Position numbers and translations under genes: made by a program
Notes under the pieces: generated by a model
Databases searched by the model: none
The model's input: only the letters and a program-made list of their open reading frames with translations
Told to the model about the DNA's origin: nothing
Shown here: piece after piece, positions 1 through 11,079 of the stretch
How the letters are laid out: every line of letters starts with the position of its first letter
Numbering within the stretch: the stretch's first letter is position 1
Source: Ekhidna sp.
GTDB lineage: Bacteria; Bacteroidota; Bacteroidia; Cytophagales; Cyclobacteriaceae
DNA length: 64,000 nt
Assembly (NCBI RefSeq): GCF_040223195.1
Contig: NZ_JAVKDX010000010.1
Span: forward strand, 73,982-137,981
Direction: 5' to 3'

Positions 1-1530
1 GGGACTTTCACCGTTCCAAGTAGTGCTGTGGAAGGAACCACTCGTTTGAGAGTTTCCATGAAATACAATGGAATACCAACATCTTGCGAGTCATTCCAAT
101 ACGGGGAAGTAGAGGATTACACAGTAAACATTACCGTAGGTGGAGATACCCAGGCACCAACTGCACCTACTGGTTTGAATGCTTCAAATGTTACACAGAC
201 GACCCTGACATTGAACTGGAACGCTTCGACGGATAATGTGGGAGTAACGGGATATGACGTGTATCAGGGAGCTTCCAACATCGGAAGTGTAACCGGAACA
301 TCTGCTAATATTACAGGTCTGGCAGCTGGCACTTCGTATACTTTTACTGTAAGAGCGAAAGATGCGGCAGGTAATGTTTCAGCGGCAAGTAATGCCCTGA
401 ATGTGACTACCCAAAGTGCGGGAATGAGTTGTGCATCTACAGTTACACTACCATATGCTGAAGGTTTTGAAACCGGAGCTGGGTGGACGCAGGTTACCGG
501 TGATGATGGTAACTGGCTTAGAGATGCCAACGGCACCCCTTCATCAAATACAGGACCAAGCTCAGCAGCCCAGGGATCATATTACATGTATCTGGAGGCA
601 TCAACCTCAGGAACAGGACAGATAGGAAGCAATGCGACCGCCATTTTGGAAAGTCCATGTTTCGATTTATCAGGTGAAAGTGCGGCAACCTTCGCATTCA
701 AGTACCACATGTATGGAAGCAATATAGGCTCACTCACGGTCCAAGCTTCCACGGATGGAAATAACTGGACGAACATTTGGACGCAATCTGGAAATCAGGG
801 TAACTCATGGCAGACTGCCAATATTGATCTGGCTGCTTACCTGGGTGATGACGTGAAACTGAGAATGATAGGAACCACTGGAAACGGATGGTCAAGTGAT
901 ATTGCAATCGATGATCTTTCGGTAAGCGCGGGAAGTACCGGTGGAGATACGGATGTGACATTGACAATCGTATTGGATAACTATCCTGAGGAAACCAGCT
1001 GGCAGATCAGAGACGGTTCGACCGTGCTAGCTTCAGGTGGAACTTACGGTTCCCAGCCCGATGGATCAACCGTGACAGAAGTAATTTCCCTTGCTACCGG
1101 ATGCTATGATTTTGTAATCAATGATAGCTACGGTGACGGAATCTGCTGCTCATACGGAAGCGGCTCATATAGCCTGACAGATGGAAGCACTACGCTTGCT
1201 ACAGGGGGCTCATTTGGATCCAGCGAGACCACCAGCTTCTGTGTTGGTGGAGCTACTTCTTCGATATTTGCCGTGCAGTCATCTGCTTCTGTAGGTTCGC
1301 CTGTGAGCGTAAGCATGTATCCAACTTACCGAGTAGGGGAGCAACTGACAATTGCATCAAATAGGTCTGAGGTGTCTTACACCATTACAAACCTGAACGG
1401 TCAGGCAGTTGAAAGTGGTCAGTTGGTAAATGGTAAGGTATATGTAGGAAACCTGAATGCGGGAATGTACATGATTCACCTCATGGATGAAGGTGGAAAA
1501 TCAATCATGAAGAAGTTTGTAAAAGAGTAA
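1..1530 (+). CDS. Secreted multidomain surface protein with its 5' end outside the window (GEVED-like / fibronectin-III / MAM-like / Cys-rich DNYPEETSW module / T9SS C-terminal sorting domain)
   Basis: Frame 1 is open from base 1 (GTFTVPSSAVEG...), so the listed ATG at 28 is internal. Motifs read from the translation are YGEVEDYTV, an FN3-like stretch PTGLNASNVTQTTLTLNWNASTDNVGVTGYDVY...YTFTVRAKDAAGN, and a MAM-like stretch GFETGAGW...GSYYMYLEAS...IAIDDLSV. The last ~80 aa are a beta-rich tail (MYPTYRVGEQLTI...GMYMIHL) typical of type IX secretion CTDs. Confidence 0.8.
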   Translation, partial: GTFTVPSSAVEGTTRLRVSMKYNGIPTSCESFQYGEVEDYTVNITVGGDTQAPTAPTGLNASNVTQTTLTLNWNASTDNVGVTGYDVYQGASNIGSVTGTSANITGLAAGTSYTFTVRAKDAAGNVSAASNALNVTTQSAGMSCASTVTLPYAEGFETGAGWTQVTGDDGNWLRDANGTPSSNTGPSSAAQGSYYMYLEASTSGTGQIGSNATAILESPCFDLSGESAATFAFKYHMYGSNIGSLTVQASTDGNNWTNIWTQSGNQGNSWQTANIDLAAYLGDDVKLRMIGTTGNGWSSDIAIDDLSVSAGSTGGDTDVTLTIVLDNYPEETSWQIRDGSTVLASGGTYGSQPDGSTVTEVISLATGCYDFVINDSYGDGICCSYGSGSYSLTDGSTTLATGGSFGSSETTSFCVGGATSSIFAVQSSASVGSPVSVSMYPTYRVGEQLTIASNRSEVSYTITNLNGQAVESGQLVNGKVYVGNLNAGMYMIHLMDEGGKSIMKKFVKE

Positions 1531-1550: not shown

Positions 1551-1584
1551 AAGCCCTGTTCACACTTGTGGATGGGGCTTTTTG
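1551..1584 (+). terminator. Intrinsic terminator after the secreted protein gene
   Basis: An AAGCCCT / GGGGCTT stem with an inner CAC/GTG pairing is followed by TTTTGTTT. It begins 20 nt after the stop at 1530. Confidence 0.5.
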
Positions 1585-1602
1585 TTTGGCTAGCTTCCCC
1601 AA

Positions 1603-1981
1603 ATGAAATTGAAAATTCCACCGGTCATAATATTCTCTTTATCCCTCGGGTTGTTATTTGGCTCATATTATCTCATTCACGATTTGGCATATTCATTCAT
1701 ATCAAGAACTCATTTCCAGGGTGTTTTTGATAGGCGGAATGTTGTGTGTTATGATGGGCCATCATTGCTTTTCGGAACAAGAGTACCACGGTAGATCCAA
1801 TGAATCCTCAAAAAGCTTATGTACTTGTGACTCACGGCATCTACAAATACACCCGAAATCCGATGTACATAGGAATGTGGTATATCCCCGATTCCCAATC
1901 AAACCGGAAGAAGAAGCGATAACCAAGCTATTCGGAAAGGAGTATAGAGAGTATTGTGAGAAAGTGAGGAGGTGGGTGTGA
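1603..1981 (+). pseudogene. Frameshifted and shortened isoprenylcysteine carboxyl methyltransferase (ICMT/PEMT-like) family gene
   Basis: The family signature is split over three frames. The N-terminal TM part MKLKIPPVIIFSLSLGLLFG is in frame 1. FLIGGMLCVMMG is in frame 2. AIIAFRNKSTTVDPMNPQKAYVLVTHGIYKYTRNPMYIGMW is in frame 3. The C-terminal EEEAITKLFGKEYREYCEKVRRWV is back in frame 2. Only a few nt separate NPMYIGMW from that C-terminal motif, so an internal deletion is also likely. Confidence 0.6.
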
Positions 1982-2150: not shown

Positions 2151-3869
2151 ATGAAAAAATTTCTCCTGCTGACCTTTGTATCAGTAATAATCATCCGATG
2201 CAACCCTAACGAAGAACAAATACAGCCCGATGAACCGAGGGAGAATCCGGGCCACTCCTATGGTAAGGTGAGGATAGATGATGACCCTACCCTTAAAAAC
2301 CTCATGAGTGCCCTTCAGTCCTCTTCCGGTAGAGTGGCAGCCCTGGACCTGGATAGTGCGGAATATCTACATGACGAAGTATTGGACCTGACCAATTATT
2401 CCATTCTTACTTCCGGTAACCGACTGGACCGTATTGAGAACATTGTATTTGTAGACTTTGATTCTGTATACGCCGCATACAATATCATATATGAGCCATC
2501 CCAGTATCATCTGGCCAATTTGGACACGGCAAGTTTTTTGGCCTATTTCTCAGGAACAATTTCTTACCAATCTTTGGAAACAGGCGAAATCTTTTATGCC
2601 ACAGAAATGCAGGATGGGGTATCCATTGATGGGGAAGCGCATGAGGGAGGACGAACCGACGGTGATGGCGATTTTCAGTACGGATGCTACATTGACCAGC
2701 AGGAAACCATGAGTTCCGAATGCTTTATACAGGTGAACACCTATGAAGTAGGTGGCCGGGTAAAATACACAACAATAAAAGTGGAAAAAACCGGCAAAAA
2801 TGCCGGCCAAACACAAACAAGTACCCACTGGGTGCGCTCCGATACCAAAGAGACGATTACTGACATTACCATCACCTGCCACCTGGACACTGACTTTTCC
2901 GAATGCCACTACAATTGGTTCAATACCAATGGATACCAGGTGATCCCGCAGTTTTCCGGCAACAACTTTTCCGGGGTGCTCAGCCTGGTGCCCAGCGGCG
3001 GACCCCAGCTTAGCCTGCTTGATGCCATAGAGAAGCAATTTTACGACTTATTAGAGCAAGATCCCTTTGCCCTTATTCAAAATTGTGACCAGATCGAAAA
3101 CTGGCAAGCCTTAGCCCAACATACACCCCCACAAGAGGTAATAGATAAAATTCAGAATTTAGATGACAACTATACAAGTATAATTTCTGGAGATTGGGAT
3201 ATACAGTACATCAAAGATGCCAAAGGCCCAGTAGTGAACCTGGACTATTTTCCTGTTAAGATCACCCAGCTTCCGATCAATCCTAACACCGGAAATCGGT
3301 TTGGGCCAACTGGTTTTTTTAACTATGTGAGAAAAAACCTAAACACCTTCTTTGCTAATAACTCTACTGAATTTGGCCCTTACAATGATGATGAATTGCT
3401 GAACTGGCTGTCCGATGACTATTTAGGCACAATTATGAGGTTTGATATCGACCTTCCAGGTCCATTTCAGCAAGATGGGAGCGTCATATGTTCTGATCAG
3501 AAAAATAGGAGTTGGATATTTACTACAATTGAATCACCACAAGATTGGAATCATCCTGTGAGTGGAAACAGACAATTTGGATTAGAACAAAATCAAGATG
3601 GAAGCTATACTTTCTTCACAAGAGGTGTTGATAGAGTAGCGGAAACGTTTGACAATTTTGTTGGAGACTTGCCAATTGCCCCATCAGCTTTTGAAGGAGC
3701 GGATGCTCTCTGGAGTGCGTTTCAGGATAATCTGGAAAATTACATCAATGACCCAGCAAATGGAGGGCAAGCACAAAAGGAAAATCCGCAAATTGATCGC
3801 CCTGATTGGGATAAGGTAAATGAAGTATTAATGGGTACCAGGCCGATTTCTGACTTAGGATGTAATTAA
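2151..3869 (+). CDS. Lipoprotein of unknown function whose last ~160 aa form a C-terminal module that recurs downstream
   Basis: The 572-aa ORF has a lipoprotein signal MKKFLLLTFVSVIIIRC followed by NPNEEQ. I recognise no named domain. The C-terminal region WIFTTIESPQDWNHPVSGNRQFGLEQNQDGSYTFFTRGVDR...NGGQAQKENPQIDRPDWDKVNEVLMGTRPISDLGCN* is paralogous to 4584..5063 and to three tail fragments. Confidence 0.8.
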   Translation: MKKFLLLTFVSVIIIRCNPNEEQIQPDEPRENPGHSYGKVRIDDDPTLKNLMSALQSSSGRVAALDLDSAEYLHDEVLDLTNYSILTSGNRLDRIENIVFVDFDSVYAAYNIIYEPSQYHLANLDTASFLAYFSGTISYQSLETGEIFYATEMQDGVSIDGEAHEGGRTDGDGDFQYGCYIDQQETMSSECFIQVNTYEVGGRVKYTTIKVEKTGKNAGQTQTSTHWVRSDTKETITDITITCHLDTDFSECHYNWFNTNGYQVIPQFSGNNFSGVLSLVPSGGPQLSLLDAIEKQFYDLLEQDPFALIQNCDQIENWQALAQHTPPQEVIDKIQNLDDNYTSIISGDWDIQYIKDAKGPVVNLDYFPVKITQLPINPNTGNRFGPTGFFNYVRKNLNTFFANNSTEFGPYNDDELLNWLSDDYLGTIMRFDIDLPGPFQQDGSVICSDQKNRSWIFTTIESPQDWNHPVSGNRQFGLEQNQDGSYTFFTRGVDRVAETFDNFVGDLPIAPSAFEGADALWSAFQDNLENYINDPANGGQAQKENPQIDRPDWDKVNEVLMGTRPISDLGCN

Positions 3870-3876
3870 TATAAAT

Positions 3877-4281
3877 ATGAAAAAATTTATTTTCAAATCT
3901 ATAATACTAGGGCTGCTCTTATATACAATTCATATGGGTTCAATATTGATTTGTGATCACTTTTATGGACAACCGTCCGGTTATGTTTTTTCTGGCTTTG
4001 GTGTTTTTGTGTACGGTTTAATATTTGGGCTATGGGCATATGTTCTACTCAATGGCATATATATATATATATCAAGAAATGATGTTAAGAGGAGCGCTAG
4101 GTATTTAAAAGCCGTTATCATTCTTATGCTAGGATATTTCCTTTCAAGAATACCCGATATGATTGATAGTGATTTCTTTAGCAACTTTAGTTGGAGAGAA
4201 ATTATTGGATTCTTACTATTGATTCCCGCTTTGGTCGAAATTGAGTTCTTACTAAGGAAAAAATTGAATAAGAGTACTTAA
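3877..4281 (+). CDS. Small multi-pass membrane protein (about 4 TM), a candidate cognate partner or immunity protein of the upstream lipoprotein
   Basis: The 134-aa ORF starts 7 nt after the lipoprotein stop and has four hydrophobic segments. It shows no similarity to the other two small membrane proteins in the array. Confidence 0.7.
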   Translation: MKKFIFKSIILGLLLYTIHMGSILICDHFYGQPSGYVFSGFGVFVYGLIFGLWAYVLLNGIYIYISRNDVKRSARYLKAVIILMLGYFLSRIPDMIDSDFFSNFSWREIIGFLLLIPALVEIEFLLRKKLNKST

Positions 4282-4304
4282 AGGTCTATTCAACGATCTT
4301 TCAA

Positions 4305-4460
4305 ATGGAGGTCAACCCTCTAGATCAGAAAATCAAAAACAATGGTGGGTCGTCAGTTGTCCCCAAAGCCTCAGATAATATAATTTATCGACCAGATTGG
4401 GAAAAGGTGAAGGAAGTGTTAAATGGTAATCGTCCAATTAGCGATTTAGAATGTGACTAA
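4305..4460 (+). pseudogene. Displaced C-terminal tail fragment of the lipoprotein family (51-codon remnant ORF)
   Basis: It translates to MEVNPLDQKIKNNGGSSVVPKASDNIIYRPDWEKVKEVLNGNRPISDLECD*, which matches the NGG...RPDW...RPISDL.C.* tail of 2151..3869. A further partial NGGQPSRSENQ remnant is readable in another frame at about 4285-4335. The fragment has no signal peptide or N-terminal domain. Confidence 0.5.
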
Positions 4461-4556
4461 ACACACAATCATGAATACCTTAGCAAAAGTACTCCGTTAC
4501 ATCCTTATTGTCGATGGTTCAATTTTCCTAATATCATTGGTGGCTTCATTAATGAT
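4411..4556 (+). repeat. Direct repeat copy A (146 nt), covering tail end, 10-nt spacer and the first 86 nt of the membrane-protein gene
   Basis: Hand alignment with 5396..5541 shows 144 of 146 identical positions. The mismatches are G/A at 4418/5403 and G/A at 4455/5440. Confidence 0.9.
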
Positions 4557-4584
4557 GCTTACTTTGAGCCATATCCTGATCTGA
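4471..4584 (+). pseudogene. Truncated 5' copy of the membrane-protein gene at 5456..5893
   Basis: The first 86 nt (MNTLAKVLRYILIVDGSIFLISLVASLM) are identical to 5456..5541. Identity ends at 4556/4557 and the frame stops at TGA 4582-4584, which overlaps the ATG of the next ORF. Confidence 0.6.
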
Positions 4585-5063
4585 TGCCCGAAGAAGGTCT
4601 GTTTTGGAGCGGTAATGAATTAGGAACCATAATACATATCGATCTATCCCCTCATGATGGAACAGTGATAGTTACAGAAGCAGAAAATAATCGCTGGATA
4701 TTTAGTGTTATAAGATCACCTCTTGATTTACATCATCCGGTAAGTGGTAACAGGGAGTTTGGATTTACACAAAACAGTGATGGATCTTATACCTTCTATA
4801 CGATGGGTGTTGATCGGCTTACTCAACCAATAGCCAGTTTGGTTCGAGATTTAAGATATTTAATTGATGGTCAAGATATGATGAATCGAGCAGACGATCT
4901 TTGGATGTCATTTCAGGACAAAATAAAGGAATTTGTTGAGCAAAATGGTGGATCCGCTACCCTACCATCTCAAAGGAATCAAGGAGACAGGCCTAACTGG
5001 CATGAAGCGCAACAGTTCTTAAATGGTGAAATTACTTTAGAAGAATTAAGAAATGATTGTTAA
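4584..5063 (+). CDS. Orphan C-terminal module, a paralogue of residues ~415-572 of the 2151..3869 lipoprotein without signal peptide or N-terminal region
   Basis: The core WIFSVIRSPLDLHHPVSGNREFGFTQNSDGSYTFYTMGVDR aligns with WIFTTIESPQDWNHPVSGNRQFGLEQNQDGSYTFFTRGVDR at 29 of 41 identical positions by hand count. It ends in NGGSATLPSQRNQGDRPNWHEAQQFLNGEITLEELRNDC*. It may be silent or a pseudogene rather than expressed. Confidence 0.55.
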   Translation: MPEEGLFWSGNELGTIIHIDLSPHDGTVIVTEAENNRWIFSVIRSPLDLHHPVSGNREFGFTQNSDGSYTFYTMGVDRLTQPIASLVRDLRYLIDGQDMMNRADDLWMSFQDKIKEFVEQNGGSATLPSQRNQGDRPNWHEAQQFLNGEITLEELRNDC

Positions 5064-5313
5064 AGCATTTGAATTCTTTTTGCTAATAGCATTTATTGTA
5101 TGGAGTGTACTTCTTTTCTATTACTGGGACAGAATACTTTATCCAGCAGACTACTTTAGCTACTATTTAGTTTTAACCATAGTATTTTTAGCATATAAGT
5201 CTTTTATGATTATTCAGTTCTTTGCAAATAAAAAAAAACCCAAATTATATCATTTTTTTGGATTGATTGGTTTTGTTATTTCAACAATTCTTTTCATAAT
5301 TTATCCTATCTGA
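5053..5313 (+). CDS. Small multi-pass membrane protein (about 3 TM), a candidate cognate partner of the orphan module
   Basis: The 86-aa ORF has an ATG that overlaps the last 11 nt of 4584..5063. It contains three hydrophobic segments and is unrelated to the other two small membrane proteins. Confidence 0.6.
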   Translation: MIVKAFEFFLLIAFIVWSVLLFYYWDRILYPADYFSYYLVLTIVFLAYKSFMIIQFFANKKKPKLYHFFGLIGFVISTILFIIYPI

Positions 5314-5349
5314 ATAAACCAATTTGGAATTAATAAAATATCATTCATA

Positions 5350-5445
5350 CCATCCCAAAGAAATCAAGGCGACAGACCTAACTGGGAAAAAGTAAAGGAA
5401 GTATTAAATGGTAATCGTCCAATTAGCGATTTAGAATGTAACTAA
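5350..5445 (+). pseudogene. Displaced C-terminal tail fragment of the lipoprotein family
   Basis: It reads ...IPSQRNQGDRPNWEKVKEVLNGNRPISDLECN*. The PSQRNQGDRPNW stretch is shared with the orphan module, and the remainder is nearly identical to the 4305..4460 tail. No upstream domain is present. Confidence 0.55.
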
Positions 5446-5541
5446 ACACACAATCATGAATACCTTAGCAAAAGTACTCCGTTACATCCTTATTGTCGAT
5501 GGTTCAATTTTCCTAATATCATTGGTGGCTTCATTAATGAT
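5396..5541 (+). repeat. Direct repeat copy B (146 nt)
   Basis: See 4411..4556. The two copies are 985 nt apart in the same orientation. Confidence 0.9.
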
Positions 5542-5893
5542 ATCTGATCGCATTATCAGTATGAATTTTGCATATATTAACTTGATAAGCATGATCGTCT
5601 TTCCAATATCTTTATTTGCTTATATTCTAATTAAAGATATCCTAAGGAATAGCACTCAATGGACAAAATTGATCTTTTACATAGGCATCAGCATCGCTTT
5701 TTTGGCTCTGCTTTTTGTGAAATATAAAAATTATTTGAATGGCTATATTGTAGTAATTCCTGGAATTGCTGCAATTCTAGCTCTCATTGTTACAACAATT
5801 TCTGATTTCAAATCAAAAAAAAGGTTAGCTTATGCATGGAGCTACCTATCCCTTATTCTTTTAATCACGTATCTAATTGCCAACTATTTCTAA
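5456..5893 (+). CDS. Small multi-pass membrane protein (about 4-5 TM), an orphan partner with only a tail fragment upstream
   Basis: The 145-aa ORF starts 10 nt after the tail fragment stop and is strongly hydrophobic. Its 5' end is duplicated at 4471. Confidence 0.7.
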   Translation: MNTLAKVLRYILIVDGSIFLISLVASLMISDRIISMNFAYINLISMIVFPISLFAYILIKDILRNSTQWTKLIFYIGISIAFLALLFVKYKNYLNGYIVVIPGIAAILALIVTTISDFKSKKRLAYAWSYLSLILLITYLIANYF

Positions 5894-6046
5894 TCAAAAG
5901 GAATAACATCTTAATTGATCAGAAAATGCTATTCAATGTGCCAAAGATATCTCATGAAATATCTATTCCTCCCTTTATCCCTTTTTTAACCTTCCCCTTC
6001 AGTACCCATTTAGCAAAAAATTATAGAATATAAGGCCATAGTGCAT

Positions 6047-6139
6047 CAGGAAAATCCGCAAATTGATCGCCCTGATTGGGATGAGGTGAAAGAAGTCCTT
6101 CTAGGACTGAGACCAATTTCTGATTTAGGATGCAATTAA
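6047..6139 (+). pseudogene. Displaced C-terminal tail fragment closest to the tail of the intact lipoprotein
   Basis: It reads QENPQIDRPDWDEVKEVLLGLRPISDLGCN*. Positions 6048-6082 are identical over 35 nt to 3778-3812, and the rest is similar with scattered substitutions. Its stop lies 38 nt from the convergent uvrD stop. Confidence 0.6.
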
Positions 6140-6177
6140 AAAATATAATGAAGTTTATTCTAAAATTTGAAAGTATC

Positions 6178-8445
6178 CTAGCCAAGAATCCTCAACTTGG
6201 CAAAGCTCAGCAGCAGCGTTTTCTCTCCGGCTTGTTCAAAATCCACTTTGGCTTTTTTATTGGCACCTTGCTCATCTATCTCCGTCACCACGCCAAAGCC
6301 AAATTTCGGGTGTTCCACCTTCATGCCTTCGGCCAGGTTGCTGGTATCGCTCGGCTCAAAATCAGCACTTGGGGTATGGTTCACCTTCGCAGCAAAGCGT
6401 TTGTTGGTGTTTTCCTTCCGGATATTCGAAACGAAGTTTTTGGTAACATAATTCACCCCGGGCGAGACCGGATCACTTGAAGAAAACTTCCGGTTTACCT
6501 TGATGAATTGCGGGTCTACTTCCTCCAGGAACCTGCTGGGCTCACAGTTTTTGAGTCGGCCAAATCGATATCGGTTTAGCGCATAGCTCATATAAAGTTT
6601 CTTCTCCGCACGTGTGATCGCCACATAGAAAAGCCTGCGCTCTTCTTCCAAATCGGCGCGGCTACTCAGCATCATCTGAGAAGGGAAAAGTTCCTCTTCC
6701 AGACCTACGATGAAAACGTACGGAAACTCCAACCCCTTCGCCATGTGAATGGTCATGAGGGTTACGGCATCTTCATTTTTTTGATTTCGATCCTCGTCTG
6801 TCAGAAGTGCTACATCCTGCAGGAACGCTCCAAGGCTTTTATCTTCCCGCTCCGGATCATCGGTAAATTCTTTGATCGCATTCAGGAGCTCCTGCGTATT
6901 CTCATAGCGGTTCATGCCTTCGATGGTCTTGTCCTCATAGAGCTCCTTCAGCAAGCCAGAAGTCTTGGCTATTTGAGAGGCTGTTTCGTAGGCATCCTTC
7001 TTCTCGTTGGTCAGCCGGAAAGACTTGATCAGGGCGGCAAAATTTTCTACCTGAGTGCCTCCACGGTTTCCTACGTAGGAAGAAGCTTTTTCCATGATTT
7101 CCCAAAGTTCCTTCCCTTCTTCATGGGCAGAGACTACCATCTTATCAATCGTTGTTGGCCCGATCCCTCGCTTGGGTAGGTTGATGATCCGACGCATGGC
7201 TGCTTCATCGTTTGGATTGACCGTGTAGCGGAAATAGGCGAGGAGGTCTTTGATTTCCTTGCGTTGGTAGAATGAAACACCACCCACAATCCGGTACCGG
7301 ATGTTGTTTCGTCGCAGCGCTTCTTCAATGGCCCTGGATTGACTATTGGTGCGGTACAGTACAGCAAACTCTTTCTCTGAAGCATGGCTTTGCATCTTCG
7401 TCTCAAAGATGGCGGAGGCCACCAGCTTTCCTTCCTCATTGTCTGAAGTGGCTTTGATGAGCTCAATGAGATCACCATCATCATTGGCCGTCCAGACGTT
7501 CTTTTTTAGCTGGGCAGTGTTCCTCCCGATCACTGCATTGGCAGCATTTACGATTGTCTTGGTGGATCGGTAATTCTGCTCAAGCCGGATGGTTTTTAGG
7601 TCAGGATAGTCTCTCTCAAAATTTAGAATGTTTTGGATATCGGCTCCCCGGAAAGCATAGATACTTTGCGCATCGTCACCCACCACACAGATGTTTTGTC
7701 GGACGGCAGCCAGTCTTTTGGCTATCAGGTACTGCGAGATATTCGTGTCCTGAAACTCATCGATCATTACGTAATGAAAACGCTGCTGGTATTTGTTAAG
7801 CACATCATCATGTTGCTGGAAAAGGATGTTCGTATTGAACAGGAGGTCATCGAAATCCATTGCATCGGCAGCAAAGCATCGCTCACAATACGTCTTATAA
7901 ATACGCCCCATTTCCGGTCGCATATTCTGCGTATCGTCTTCCAGGTAGATGGGGTTGTTCAGGTACTCCCTCCATGACACGAGTCTGTTTTTCGCTCCAG
8001 AGATTCGGCTGTAGATGATGTTAGGTTTGTAGACTTTGTCATCCAGGTTGAATTCTTTGACGATCAGCTTGATAAGGGATTTGGAGTCATCCGTGTCATA
8101 TATGGTGAAGTTGCTGGGATACCCGATTCGGCTAGCTTCTGCTCGTAAGATTCGAGCAAACACCGAGTGGAATGTCCCCATCCACAGGTTTCTGGCTTCA
8201 GCCCCCACCATTTGCTCAATTCGCTTTTGCATTTCCCTGGCTGCTTTGTTGGTAAATGTCAGTGCCATGATGTTGAACGGATCTACATCATGGGCGCGAA
8301 TGAGGTGGGCTATCCGATAGGTGAGTACCCTTGTTTTGCCTGATCCGGCACCTGCTATGATCATGCAAGGTCCTTCTACATTTACTACACCTTCTCGTTG
8401 GGGGGGATTGAGTTGATCAAGGTAATCTGCCTGCGCTTCTGCCAT
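6178..8445 (-). CDS. uvrD: UvrD/PcrA-family ATP-dependent DNA helicase
   Basis: The 755-aa ORF carries AGAGSGKT (Walker A), IDEFQDTN, VGDDAQSIYAFRGA and TIHMAKGLEF. It also has the C-terminal VEHPKFGFGVV motif. Confidence 0.95.
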   Translation of the reverse strand: MAEAQADYLDQLNPPQREGVVNVEGPCMIIAGAGSGKTRVLTYRIAHLIRAHDVDPFNIMALTFTNKAAREMQKRIEQMVGAEARNLWMGTFHSVFARILRAEASRIGYPSNFTIYDTDDSKSLIKLIVKEFNLDDKVYKPNIIYSRISGAKNRLVSWREYLNNPIYLEDDTQNMRPEMGRIYKTYCERCFAADAMDFDDLLFNTNILFQQHDDVLNKYQQRFHYVMIDEFQDTNISQYLIAKRLAAVRQNICVVGDDAQSIYAFRGADIQNILNFERDYPDLKTIRLEQNYRSTKTIVNAANAVIGRNTAQLKKNVWTANDDGDLIELIKATSDNEEGKLVASAIFETKMQSHASEKEFAVLYRTNSQSRAIEEALRRNNIRYRIVGGVSFYQRKEIKDLLAYFRYTVNPNDEAAMRRIINLPKRGIGPTTIDKMVVSAHEEGKELWEIMEKASSYVGNRGGTQVENFAALIKSFRLTNEKKDAYETASQIAKTSGLLKELYEDKTIEGMNRYENTQELLNAIKEFTDDPEREDKSLGAFLQDVALLTDEDRNQKNEDAVTLMTIHMAKGLEFPYVFIVGLEEELFPSQMMLSSRADLEEERRLFYVAITRAEKKLYMSYALNRYRFGRLKNCEPSRFLEEVDPQFIKVNRKFSSSDPVSPGVNYVTKNFVSNIRKENTNKRFAAKVNHTPSADFEPSDTSNLAEGMKVEHPKFGFGVVTEIDEQGANKKAKVDFEQAGEKTLLLSFAKLRILG

Positions 8446-8781
8446 GCGGCAAAAGTATTTGATTTGGTCAAATAATATTTTTCGACCTAAACGAAATCAG
8501 GAAATGAACCGGAAAATGTTGTTGAGAATGATGAAGCCCAGAAAGGCCAGAAAAAAAATTACTTCCAGAATGAGAATAATATTTCTTGCTTTGAATGCAG
8601 GCTTCTTCACGCGGGTGGCTTGTGTATATAAGTCGAGCTTTTGCAATTGATAAAATTACAACATTATAAAAATGTTATTGCAATGTTAACGCACTCAGCT
8701 AAATCTCGAAAATCAAATTACTTCCGTAATGGATTAAAATAGTTATCTTGTTTAGCATCAAACTAACTTAATTACACTATT

Positions 8782-9189
8782 ATGGATTTTTCATCAATTA
8801 ATTGGCTGGCAGTGGTAGTAGCTTCTGTTTCAGCATTTATTGTAGGGGGATTATGGTACGGCCCATTGTTTGGAAAGGCCTGGATGGCTGAGATGGGCTT
8901 TACCGAAGATGATTTAAAGAATGCCAACATGGCCAAAATTTATGGTACGGCCTTCGTGCTTGAGTTCATCATTGCACTTCAGCTGGCGTACTTTCTGGGT
9001 CATGGAAATACGGATCCATCCGTAGGGCAGGGAGCAGCCTATGGGTTGCATATCGGCTTGTTTTTCATCGCCGCGGCGATGGGTGTCAATGCCCTGTTTT
9101 CCAGAACGTCCCTGAAGCTATGGTTTATCAATGCGTTCTATTTCGTGATCCTTCTGACACTGATGGGAGTGATTTTGACAGTGATGTGA
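8782..9189 (+). CDS. DUF1761-like small membrane protein
   Basis: The 135-aa ORF has 4 hydrophobic segments. Its N-terminus INWLAVVVASVSAFIVGGLWYGPLFGKAWM resembles that family. Confidence 0.6.
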   Translation: MDFSSINWLAVVVASVSAFIVGGLWYGPLFGKAWMAEMGFTEDDLKNANMAKIYGTAFVLEFIIALQLAYFLGHGNTDPSVGQGAAYGLHIGLFFIAAAMGVNALFSRTSLKLWFINAFYFVILLTLMGVILTVM

Positions 9190-9209
9190 AAACAGATAAA
9201 GAATAAATG

Positions 9210-9234
9210 GCCCTCTTTTGAGGGCTATTTTTTT
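9210..9234. terminator. Hairpin between convergent genes
   Basis: The hairpin GCCCTC-TTTT-GAGGGC is followed by TATTTTTTT. It overlaps the stop of the minus-strand gene. Confidence 0.5.
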
Positions 9235-9716
9235 CGCTTAAAACCCCCCTCGTGAAAGGTTTGATCACACGTTTCATCTTTCATAGAGCATACCTGATAC
9301 CTGTACTCATCCTCAGATAGAAATATCCAACTGTCCCTGAGTAGCATGTCACCATAGGCATATTCATAATAGATGTTTTTTCCTTCGATTTTGATTATTC
9401 CCTTACTCACACCCCCTAGCTTATCAAACTCATAGAATTCAAGTTGCTTTGTTTCCGAATTAAAAGCTCTAACACCCTCATTTCTCAATCCAAACTCTAG
9501 AGTCTTAGGATCTGTGGTGTAGGTTTTCACTTTCACAATCTTCCTTTCCAGTCCCCATTCGAATTCCTTCACGGTTTTGCCGTCATGACCTCCGAGTTGT
9601 TTTCCATCAGCAATCCAGGTGCTCCCGACTAGATTCTCGAAGGCCTTTATTGATTCATTTTGTGCCTGAGTAAACTGTGAGGCAATGAGAAGGGAAATCA
9701 GCAGCAGGTTTTTCAT
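9225..9716 (-). CDS. Secreted hypothetical protein
   Basis: I trimmed this to the internal ATG at 9716, which gives a signal peptide MKNLLLISLLIASQFTQAQ. The longer listed ORF would overlap the upstream peptidase gene. Confidence 0.65.
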   Translation of the reverse strand: MKNLLLISLLIASQFTQAQNESIKAFENLVGSTWIADGKQLGGHDGKTVKEFEWGLERKIVKVKTYTTDPKTLEFGLRNEGVRAFNSETKQLEFYEFDKLGGVSKGIIKIEGKNIYYEYAYGDMLLRDSWIFLSEDEYRYQVCSMKDETCDQTFHEGGFKRKK

Positions 9717-9720
9717 CTCT

Positions 9721-11079
9721 TTAGTTTCTTGAATTAGGGCTAAGTTTTCTCGGGATGGACATAATCTCCATTTGCCTTCCGTCAATATACCTGACGGTCT
9801 CGCCATCGAAGAACGCATCTTCTTCCAGCATGATACGGATTTCTTTACCCCACTCTTCAATAAATACCCCAGCATTCAATTCGATGGAGTGAGCGGTATT
9901 TGGATAGAGTGGATAATCGCCCTTGCCAGGTACACCGCCCTGCATGTCCCACAGTCCGATGGTTGGCCCGGCTGCATGCCCATGAAAGCCAATTGGGTGT
10001 GTGTAGATCACACCCTTGAGGCCCTCAGATGCGCATTGATCCAACGTAGACCTGAGTATTTCATTCCCACTACGGCCACTTACGAAATTAGAGGTAAGGA
10101 TGTCCTGAACACGATTCCCTTTTTTAAATGCGGATTTTAAAAAATCCGGCACATCCTGTTCACCGGGCTTCAGCACGTAGGCATGTTGCTGCGTGTCGGT
10201 ATTGAGTCGGAGATATGTAATCCCAAAATCTACATGCAGCAGATCCCCGGGATAGATTATTTGCTGTTCTGGTCGCTCGGAGAATGAGCGCAAATGATCA
10301 AAAGATTCCGGATCCTTTCGCTGGATGGATACCGAAGGATGGAACCAGGCAGTGAAACCCAACTCACGAATCCTGTCACGGTACCACCACACCACATCGT
10401 CGGTAGTTGTGATGCCAGGTTGAATTACTTTTTCTGAAAAACCCTCTGCAATGATCTGATGGGCGATCCTCACAATATTTTGATAAACGATCATCTCACT
10501 TTCGGTGCGGGTTTCCAGCCATCCTATTGCCACATTTTCCGCACCTACGACACGATCCTGATATTTCTTCGGCAGTACATCCATCAGCATATCATAGTGG
10601 GTGGATGAGATGCCATCCGCAAGCGCAAATGTTTCTGATTTATTGATACCTATTTTTTTGGGATCTTTTTTCAGGATCATATCTGCCAGCGCTTTCCACT
10701 GATCTGGCTGCATTTCCTTATTCCACATGGTCTTGAATAATTCACCTGTGTTGTAGCGGGACATCCCGAAAGTTTCCAGGGGCTTGCCTTCCCCGGGATC
10801 GAAAGCGATGAGCATTGTGGTTCTCCTGGCCGATTGCCAGGTAGCTGGCAAGAGGGTCTTAATTACAGGATCTTCGTTGTATTCCCTGGCAATGATGACC
10901 CACATATCAATGCCGGTGCGTCGCATCACCTCAGGGAGAACCGTTTGTATTCGCTCTTCCAGCCAGTTGTCAATGACCTCTGCTCTTTCCTTCATGGAAA
11001 GGATTTTTGGAGTATAGGGATTTTGAGCCCAGAGAGCTGTGCCGAGAATAATAAGGGAAAGATTAAGAATTGATCTCAT
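9721..11079 (-). CDS. M24-family metallopeptidase (Xaa-Pro aminopeptidase-like), secreted
   Basis: A signal peptide is present, along with pita-bread fold signatures DLLHVDFG, HPIGFHGH, HSIELN and MLEED. Confidence 0.8.
   Translation of the reverse strand: MRSILNLSLIILGTALWAQNPYTPKILSMKERAEVIDNWLEERIQTVLPEVMRRTGIDMWVIIAREYNEDPVIKTLLPATWQSARRTTMLIAFDPGEGKPLETFGMSRYNTGELFKTMWNKEMQPDQWKALADMILKKDPKKIGINKSETFALADGISSTHYDMLMDVLPKKYQDRVVGAENVAIGWLETRTESEMIVYQNIVRIAHQIIAEGFSEKVIQPGITTTDDVVWWYRDRIRELGFTAWFHPSVSIQRKDPESFDHLRSFSERPEQQIIYPGDLLHVDFGITYLRLNTDTQQHAYVLKPGEQDVPDFLKSAFKKGNRVQDILTSNFVSGRSGNEILRSTLDQCASEGLKGVIYTHPIGFHGHAAGPTIGLWDMQGGVPGKGDYPLYPNTAHSIELNAGVFIEEWGKEIRIMLEEDAFFDGETVRYIDGRQMEIMSIPRKLSPNSRN

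Follow-up and report, generated by a model that had tools for sequence, protein, structure and literature searches.

What kind of system is encoded where a lipoprotein gene is followed, on its own strand, by a series of partial copies of its 3′ end interleaved with genes for small membrane proteins? We addressed this question for positions 2151–6139 of a 64,000-nt stretch of the Ekhidna sp. contig NZ_JAVKDX010000010.1, referred to throughout as the window. The feature is real and not a product of chance. On balance, and arguing from sequence and from analogy with known systems, we favour a bacteriocin-like, membrane-acting lipoprotein toxin with a polytopic immunity protein, followed by orphan immunity modules that carry toxin stubs.

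Coordinates are based on a six-frame listing of open reading frames (ORFs) and direct reading of positions 3780–6260; the ORF listing, repeats and tblastn recovered every element described in the initial annotation, which had been made from the sequence alone. The locus opens with the full-length family gene (2151–3869, plus strand; 572 aa), and 7 nt past its stop begins the gene for its cognate partner and putative immunity protein (3877–4281), a 134-aa polytopic protein of the partner family 'cluster 3' with three to four transmembrane (TM) segments, as counted here and below by a simple hydropathy scan. The remaining elements of the array also lie on the plus strand. Tail fragment 1 (class B; 4305–4460), in which the final ~45 codons of an otherwise lost family gene survive, matches positions 242–284 of the family hidden Markov model (HMM) at 36 bits. 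Behind it lies a truncated membrane-protein gene (4471–4584) that agrees in all of its first 28 codons with the intact 'TM145' gene further downstream; the copy breaks off at ~4556, where it runs out of frame into the following fragment. This is a 5′-truncated family gene (class C; 4545–5063, HMM positions 118–281, 199 bits), in which homology to the lipoprotein begins at ~4545 and the ORF itself spans 4584–5063 (159 aa). Its stop is overlapped by 11 nt by the 5′ end of the orphan immunity-type gene paired with it, which encodes an 86-aa, 3-TM protein of 'cluster 8' (5053–5313). Tail fragment 2 (5347–5445), delimited by repeats and alignment, is a mosaic, and 10 nt after its stop begins the intact orphan immunity-type gene TM145 (5456–5893), encoding a 145-aa protein of 'cluster 4' with four to five TM segments. 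Tail fragment 3 (class A-like; 6041–6139) shares 81% nucleotide identity with the tail of the main gene and breaks off abruptly on its 5′ side; no membrane-protein gene follows it, and the stop of a convergent uvrD-like gene is 39 nt away. The AT-rich 150-nt spacer between the TM145 gene and tail 3 (5894–6040) may be a further decayed gene remnant, and a 22-nt segment of it (5917–5938) matches 4323–4344, just upstream of tail 1, at 77%. The block had been judged more AT-rich than its flanks, and indeed its GC content is 0.28–0.39 over 3800–6200 vs 0.46–0.50 on both sides.

The 572-aa protein has a 100% match, P0001, annotated as hypothetical, in a metagenome-assembled genome (MAG) of Ekhidna sp., and 72 homologues, likewise all annotated as hypothetical, in Cyclobacteriaceae, Reichenbachiella, Roseivirga, Bizionia, Flavobacterium and Pedobacter. 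With few exceptions, these align solely to residues ~290–572, at 40–71% identity, and the N-terminal halves are mostly unalignable, remaining singletons when clustered at E 1e-5. Judged by these alignments, it is the C-terminal ~285 aa that form a conserved family domain, and hypervariability lies in the N-terminal half. This polarity is opposite to the one assumed initially, when the C-terminal module was taken for a variable, displaceable toxin tip. The gene is accordingly divided into a signal peptide (Cys17, codon 2199–2201), a hypervariable N-terminal half (~2202–3005) and a C-domain (~3006–3866), with a short Gly/Pro linker joining the latter two and an RPDW...PISDLGC tail closing the protein. 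Residues C312, H468-P-V-S471, R474, G477, G492, D494-R495, W521, G539 and C571 are invariant, and the invariant motifs of the C-domain are HPVSGxR and GVDR. The two invariant cysteines, one at the start of the C-domain and the other the penultimate residue, suggest a disulfide that would tie the tail back onto the domain, and with it an oxidising, extracytoplasmic location.

The family is large. A pattern scan of 185,579 species genomes (one genome per species) found 222 family loci, almost all in Bacteroidota, and a search of 1.84 billion cluster representatives with the family profile yielded ~4,700 family proteins at E ≤ 1e-3, 1,190 of them at E ≤ 1e-30, these being counts of clusters at 50% identity. 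Members are usually 520–660 aa long. Long members lack informative Pfam trafficking domains; the single hit, in P0136 (1,077 aa), is a CBM96 domain after an N-terminal Por_Secre_tail, which looks like two adjacent genes fused by the gene caller and no true architecture. The family also turns up in MAGs that bear the labels Janthinobacterium, Halioglobus, Gemmatimonadales and Neobacillus (L072, L074, L075 and L083). The Halioglobus contig bears its own array of stubs and membrane genes, and the N-terminal half of the 'Neobacillus' copy groups with its counterparts at two Sphingobacterium loci (L057 and L064) and one Chryseobacterium locus (L070), a sequence affinity that suggests bin contamination.

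Scans against Pfam, NCBIfam, PADLOC and PHROGs returned nothing meaningful for the lipoprotein, the class C fragment or the three membrane proteins. No Pfam family was significant on the 572-aa or the 159-aa protein (at E ≤ 1 the sole listing was GYF, sub-threshold at E 0.16), the N-terminal half of the lipoprotein has no Pfam domain, and the family profile yielded only spurious Gly-linker matches among PDB sequences. The C-terminal domain had at first been described as one that could not be named, and as far as sequence families go this stands, with no match to the curated START/Bet v 1/SRPBCC families of Pfam and NCBIfam. Its predicted structure, however, can be named. An AlphaFold2 model of the C-domain built with the family alignment (mean predicted local distance difference test (pLDDT) score 89.9, predicted template modelling (pTM) score 0.85) gave 110 Foldseek matches in the PDB at E ≤ 1e-3, and the top 50 are all of the Bet v 1, PR-10, PYL, STARD10 or CoxG type. 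The best match (E ~1e-5, probability 1.0) has a target-normalised TM-score of ~0.6 over ~177 columns, covering residues ~365–535. From these models we are confident in predicting a START/Bet v 1-like helix-grip fold, to which the family adds N-terminal helices and a ~35-residue tail. Invariant His, Arg and Asp residues would line the predicted pocket, which points to a lipid or lipid-phosphate as the putative ligand. When the whole protein was modelled, residues 35–160 form a moderately confident alpha+beta domain, and residues 161–287 are unmodelled (pLDDT <50).

The second component of the system is the membrane protein encoded directly downstream. Among the 81 loci with enough downstream sequence, 79 have a partner gene, defined as an ORF of 76–190 aa with at least two predicted TM segments that begins between −60 and +150 nt relative to the family gene's stop, mostly within 20 nt. 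These small proteins are predicted to span the membrane three to six times and have no Pfam match. Their many BLAST clusters condense into at least five families without detectable profile–profile homology, hhalign probability being <13% for all pairs of partner clusters except 0/6 and 3/5. Immunity proteins typically come in such unrelated sets, which would be uncommon for a functional subunit. Beyond the pair, no conserved neighbour gene was found in the 80 loci compared.

The choice of partner appears from sequence to track the C-domain and not the N-terminal half. The closest C-domain relatives of the window (four to five loci, including L001, L003 and L005) all have cluster-3 partners with 35–46% identity to the 134-aa protein although they vary in their N-terminal halves, and between the window and L001 the C-domains are 71% identical and the partners homologous, with unrelated N-terminal halves. 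More generally, the nearest-neighbour C-domain carries the same partner family in 35 of 46 loci vs 6.9 ± 2.7 in label shuffles, an association confounded by shared descent. The orphan membrane proteins of the window also belong to this repertoire. TM145 aligns free of indels along its whole length (145 residues) with the primary partner in L012 (Reichenbachiella faecimaris), at 65.5% identity, and its family is the primary partner in L012, L023, L024, L028 and L031; the 86-aa protein is 42% identical to an 87-aa orphan in L001, a Cyclobacteriaceae MAG. In a separate case, Chishuiella changwenlii (L052, 8839–11782), six consecutive small membrane-protein genes follow the family gene with two partner families alternating, and no toxin stubs are detectable between them.

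Downstream fragments are likewise a trait of the family. Using the C-domain HMM on six-frame translations, and excluding one frameshift split, we found 26 fragments in all, the window's 4 and 22 in 16 other loci from Cytophagia, Flavobacteriia and one gammaproteobacterial MAG. Every fragment lies downstream of, and on the same strand as, an intact gene; nearly all reach its C-terminal end, their 5′ ends vary from profile position 118 to 263, and ~20 of the 26 stand directly ahead of a small TM ORF. The toxin–immunity-like layout with displaced 3′ remnants that had been proposed for this single locus therefore recurs, both in the 79 paired loci and in the 16 further loci with fragments. Modules of this kind also recur in more than one genus. 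The best external match of tail 1 is the intact gene of L012 (59.5% over 42 aa), whose partner belongs to the TM145 family, as does the truncated copy behind tail 1, and the tail of the class C fragment is 67% similar to an orphan fragment in L001 that likewise precedes a cluster-8 membrane protein. The order of the array in L001 differs from that in the window, so cassettes vary in number and content between genomes that share the first pair.

The class C ORF covers the second half of the START-like domain and retains the HPVSGNR and GVDR motifs. It begins at profile position 118, lacking the first strand and the N-terminal helices, and is therefore a truncated remnant and not a self-sufficient module, one that to judge from its sequence is probably non-functional. 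The downstream elements are orphan immunity-type modules, consisting mostly of short stubs and intact membrane genes, and no store of alternative toxin tips.

The same fold and gene pairing could serve a non-toxic envelope function, in which a lipoprotein that binds a lipid or other hydrophobic ligand and a small inner-membrane partner act in uptake, transfer or sensing of a hydrophobic molecule, and the stubs and additional membrane genes are debris of duplication and decay in a region prone to recombination. The predicted fold is that of the ligand-binding START, Bet v 1 and CoxG proteins, the invariant polar residues H468, R474, D494 and R495 could make a ligand site, no known toxin domain was detected, and unrelated partners occur with related C-domains. 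For a functional subunit, one would expect homology from locus to locus, yet the partners fall into at least five unrelated families. The regular succession of a stub and an intact, conserved partner gene of another class is left unexplained, as is the sporadic, context-free occurrence of the family at low GC, and we consider an envelope function of this kind unlikely.

The repeats within the locus show how its pieces are related. The four tails form a family of 100-nt direct repeats (at 3778, 4369, 5354 and 6048; 62–81% identity). Searched by tblastn against the 64-kb window, the C-terminal 287 residues of the lipoprotein match 4551–5048 (40% identity, E 8e-31), 6041–6136 (78%, E 5e-12), 5365–5442 (E 7e-7) and 4341–4457 (E 6e-6), with no further match. 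A 167-nt direct repeat (4390–4556 vs 5375–5541, 96% identical), which identifies the truncated TM145-type copy, takes in a tail, the spacer of 10 nt behind it and the opening 28 codons of the 145-aa gene. Tail 2 is correspondingly composite, with ~45 nt at its 5′ end that are class C-like and, from the RPNW codons onwards, a sequence 96% identical to tail 1 and the start of the 145-aa gene. A recombination breakpoint inside a tail, as seen in tail 2, is therefore real.

Whether the tail is the general site of recombination is a separate matter. The suggestion that it is the best-conserved DNA of the gene, and so the recombination anchor, did not hold up, given its mean pairwise nucleotide identity of 0.52–0.54 vs 0.60–0.65 at the VNMDYFPV and HPVSGNR/GVDR motifs (68 family genes). 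Because the tail is not the best-conserved DNA, recombination homology at the extreme C-terminus, as the initial annotation proposed, is not established as a general mechanism. A role of the tail as an anchor is one possibility, and the simpler reading is that displaced toxin genes are truncated from the 5′ side, with selection retaining the immunity gene and the ~100 nt ahead of it. A scan for sigma-70 promoters and terminators, which bears on the idea that the tails might hold the promoter of the immunity genes, gave nothing above shuffle expectation, with a scan model ill-suited to Bacteroidota promoters.

Taken further, the tails could be integron-like or Campbell-type sites at which circular or linear units of a tail and a membrane gene are inserted, making the locus mainly a defence island built by capture of immunity genes and not a row of displaced resident pairs. 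The two tails closest to each other (81%), the main gene's and tail 3, enclose the entire 2.2-kb array as a direct repeat, tails outnumber membrane genes by one in the window, the parentage of tail 2 switches exactly at the RPNW codons, and eight fragments in other loci begin at HMM positions 254–263, beside that motif. Some of these starts may be detection limits of the HMM, however, and the longer fragments (HMM starts 118–237) are ordinary truncations. Arrays elsewhere normally end in a membrane gene and not in a tail, and the tail is less conserved than the core motifs. No integrase or recombinase lies in or beside the locus, with neither a recombinase-size ORF nor a recombinase Pfam match between the upstream MAM/fn3 gene (28–1530) and uvrD (6178–8445). 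We regard capture at such sites as improbable. Silent-cassette gene conversion varying a surface lipoprotein, which had been raised as the alternative, has in its favour several partial copies behind one expressed gene of a probably surface-exposed protein and a mosaic tail that proves inter-copy recombination, but it fits so poorly as to be very improbable, since the copies are limited to the conserved 3′ end (three of the four comprise only 30–45 codons) and none covers the hypervariable N-terminal half, their 62–81% identity to the expressed tail is too low for efficient conversion, the interleaved intact and conserved membrane-protein ORFs are not needed by it, and the locus has no recombinase and a single weak inverted repeat.

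Export to the cell surface is suggested by the N-termini of the family. A canonical lipobox was recognised in 35 of 80 N-termini with a strict pattern and in 43 with a relaxed pattern, many of the 80 being truncated or having miscalled starts. At least two acidic residues occupy positions +2 to +7 in 31 of the 43 members with a recognisable lipobox Cys (for example, C-EKDDFEE, C-QKDDGHE and C-QQDDLRD). In Bacteroidetes, surface exposure of lipoproteins is directed by a lipoprotein export signal of the form C-X-K-(D/E)2-X, QKDDE or SDDDD (PMC5080379), which the acidic stretch in most family members resembles. By this resemblance, the lipoprotein is probably surface-exposed.

The genomic setting of the locus is variable. 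Window positions 6185–11079 are collinear with three Ekhidna genomes in which UvrD is 93–98% identical, and collinearity breaks at the uvrD stop (window 6184–6197; around 11260 in L084, L085 and L086), with different cargo in each relative and no family gene within 9 kb in any of them. The cargo in L085 includes a tyrosine integrase, a Gp49/helix-turn-helix pair, a methyltransferase and a group II intron reverse transcriptase. The locus thus occupies a variable genomic spot, and the 3′ side of uvrD looks like an insertion hotspot. Given the lack of conserved neighbours, the differing contexts, the low GC and the synteny breakpoint, the family gene and its partner form an autonomous two-gene module. 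The uvrD-like helicase gene itself (6178–8445, minus strand) is convergent with the array, its 3′ end being the synteny boundary. The upstream border is formed by a decayed pseudogene, as had been noted at the outset, which we identify as a frameshifted methyltransferase remnant of the PEMT/ICMT type (1566–1981, plus strand) from its broken ORFs, a GIYKYTRNPMYIG motif and matches of a 40-aa piece to PF04191 (E 1e-4, below cut-off) and PF04140 (E 4e-3). Further upstream, and unrelated to the locus, a gene running off the start of the window (28–1530) encodes a secreted protein that combines GEVED, fn3 and MAM domains with a C-terminal sorting domain for type IX secretion (Por_Secre_tail).

Outside cellular chromosomes, a tblastn search of phages gave no match to the family, and plasmids gave a single distant one, a 216-aa signal-less protein on plasmid p3 of Azospirillum argentinense Az39 (L087, 4704–5354). 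It matches profile positions 63–258 (75 bits), retains HPxSGxREFG and belongs to a subfamily of ~218 aa. Its gene sits between hcp and tssG in a type VI secretion system (T6SS) cluster, with no adjacent immunity-type ORF; in L089, a relative from this subfamily (5631–6287) is followed by a 133-aa lipoprotein (6327–6728). This arrangement offers a hint, at the level of gene context, that the core domain can be a secreted effector.

We therefore return to a lipoprotein toxin with a polytopic immunity protein, whose logic is matched by an extracytoplasmic lipoprotein that is probably exposed at the surface, by the succession of a variable N-terminal half, linker and conserved C-domain, by the closely linked but unrelated polytopic partners, the intact orphans behind truncated stubs and the low GC, and by the lack of further conserved neighbours and the sporadic, context-free occurrence. 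Under this proposal, the hypervariable N-terminal half would serve in targeting or presentation, and the conserved START/Bet v 1-fold C-domain would be the active module, which probably binds or attacks a lipid or some other hydrophobic constituent of the target's cytoplasmic membrane, on its periplasmic side; action at that membrane is suggested, by analogy, by the polytopic nature of the putative immunity proteins. Delivery might be from the surface or by outer-membrane vesicles. The adjoining small polytopic membrane protein would protect the producer. Each stub with its membrane gene would be the residue of an earlier or acquired toxin–immunity pair, its toxin gene truncated from the 5′ side, with selection keeping the immunity gene and, probably, expression signals in the last ~100 nt of the toxin gene. 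Orphan immunity genes retained in this way would confer resistance to the toxins of neighbours. More tentatively, and with distinctly less confidence, we suggest that the family may be a phylum-wide and so far unrecognised group of surface- or vesicle-borne lipoprotein bacteriocins with a START-fold killing module, unrelated polytopic immunity proteins and arrays that grow through 3′-tail recombination; the killing module might then bind or cleave a membrane lipid such as an undecaprenyl-phosphate-linked precursor or a quinone.

Several observations weigh against a toxin–immunity assignment. The roles of toxin and immunity protein are read from sequence and layout and not from function, and the membrane topology of the partners from the hydropathy scan described above. 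To our knowledge, the START/Bet v 1 fold is classically ligand-binding or enzymatic and is no known antibacterial toxin fold. C-domains with ~70% identity can have unrelated partners (L016/L025 and L013/L042), which is hard to reconcile with strict cognate specificity. The T6SS link holds for one of six contexts examined, the other five being without secretion genes, and the nearest relatives of the window lack the locus. Lastly, the lipobox of the window's own protein is atypical (IIIR-C-NPNEEQ), with Arg at position −1 (CGA; 2196–2201) where homologues have Ser, Ala or Gly and close homologues have canonical lipoboxes. The Arg could be a true variant, a MAG consensus error or a loss of lipidation, and lipidation of this protein, as predicted from its sequence, is probable rather than certain.

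Were a toxin–immunity role correct, the family would represent a new, START-like antibacterial effector fold with probably a new membrane or lipid target, and would give a function to thousands of 'hypothetical' lipoproteins and to their unannotated small membrane partners. Its range takes in Cytophagia, Flavobacteriia, Sphingobacteriia and Saprospiria, including the fish and human opportunists Elizabethkingia, Tenacibaculum and Chryseobacterium. Antagonism through a surface lipoprotein or vesicle would be independent of secretion systems, which would be of note because work on this phylum has so far centred on T6SS effectors and MACPF proteins, and the orphan arrays would record the toxin classes that a lineage has met.

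How does this system compare with those already known? Literature searches, which covered toxins of the START, SRPBCC or Bet v 1 kind as well as lipoprotein toxins of Bacteroidota accompanied by orphan immunity genes, turned up no account of the family, and toxins of the START/Bet v 1 type are absent from a comprehensive survey of polymorphic toxins published in 2012. With START, Bet v 1 and SRPBCC proteins the family shares the predicted helix-grip fold of residues ~365–535; it differs in its own HPVSGxR...GVDR signature, extra helices and Cys-tied tail, and in a predicted extracytoplasmic, lipid-anchored location. Acquired interbacterial defence islands of Bacteroidales, reportedly described by Ross et al. 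in Nature in 2019, carry orphan immunity genes against T6SS effectors. The array resembles them in having immunity-type genes without toxins, some with toxin-gene remnants, in a Bacteroidota genome. In contrast to the recombinase-associated type of these islands, which has a tyrosine recombinase, the locus here has none, and its array sits right behind an intact toxin-like gene of the same family.

In Rhs, CDI and MafB systems (PMC3482391), as here, an immunity-type gene lies directly downstream (79 of 81 loci in this family), promoterless 5′-truncated pieces follow, each with an immunity-type gene, and there is evidence of recombination between classes. The polarity is reversed, however, as the N-terminal half is variable here and the C-domain one conserved fold, and the family has neither a VENN or PxxxxDPxGL demarcating motif nor a type V, type VI or type VII secretion scaffold. 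Most orphans here are moreover short stubs and not whole toxin tips.

A lipoprotein carrier had been seen as a departure from known toxin systems, and there is in fact precedent for it in the SitA toxins of myxobacteria, outer-membrane lipoproteins that are delivered by TraAB-dependent outer membrane exchange (PMC5562445). Both have a type II signal with a lipobox, a C-terminal active domain (putatively so in our family) and an immunity-type gene immediately downstream. The C-domains of SitA are diverse toxins that act in the cytoplasm (for example, a WHH nuclease), countered by cytosolic immunity proteins of the SUKH type (PMC5562445). In contrast, the family here has a single conserved START-like domain and polytopic membrane partners. 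We know of no TraAB-type system in the family's taxa, and no search for TraAB was made.

By analogy, the logic of the family appears closest to that of the ColM-like bacteriocins with their immunity proteins PmiA and BmiA. In those systems, a C-terminal killing domain with ~69% identity is paired with integral-membrane immunity proteins encoded downstream on the same strand, PmiA being about 137 aa with 4 TM segments and 36–40% identity and BmiA having 3 TM segments, and orphan pmiA genes sit behind remnants of the toxin gene pseuM (PMC5277000). The family here has no ColM domain, by the absence of a Pfam hit and by Foldseek matches that are best to Bet v 1 and START proteins, and it belongs to Bacteroidota and is predicted to be a lipoprotein and not a released soluble protein. 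What the two share is a variable N-terminal part with a conserved C-terminal domain that is, or in our case would be, the active one, and a same-strand downstream gene for a polytopic membrane protein (3–4 TM segments, about 100–140 aa). In both, the partner or immunity genes come from several unrelated families, orphans are preceded by toxin-gene remnants, and the C-domain is better conserved than the partner (~69% vs 36–40% there and 60–71% vs 35–46% here).

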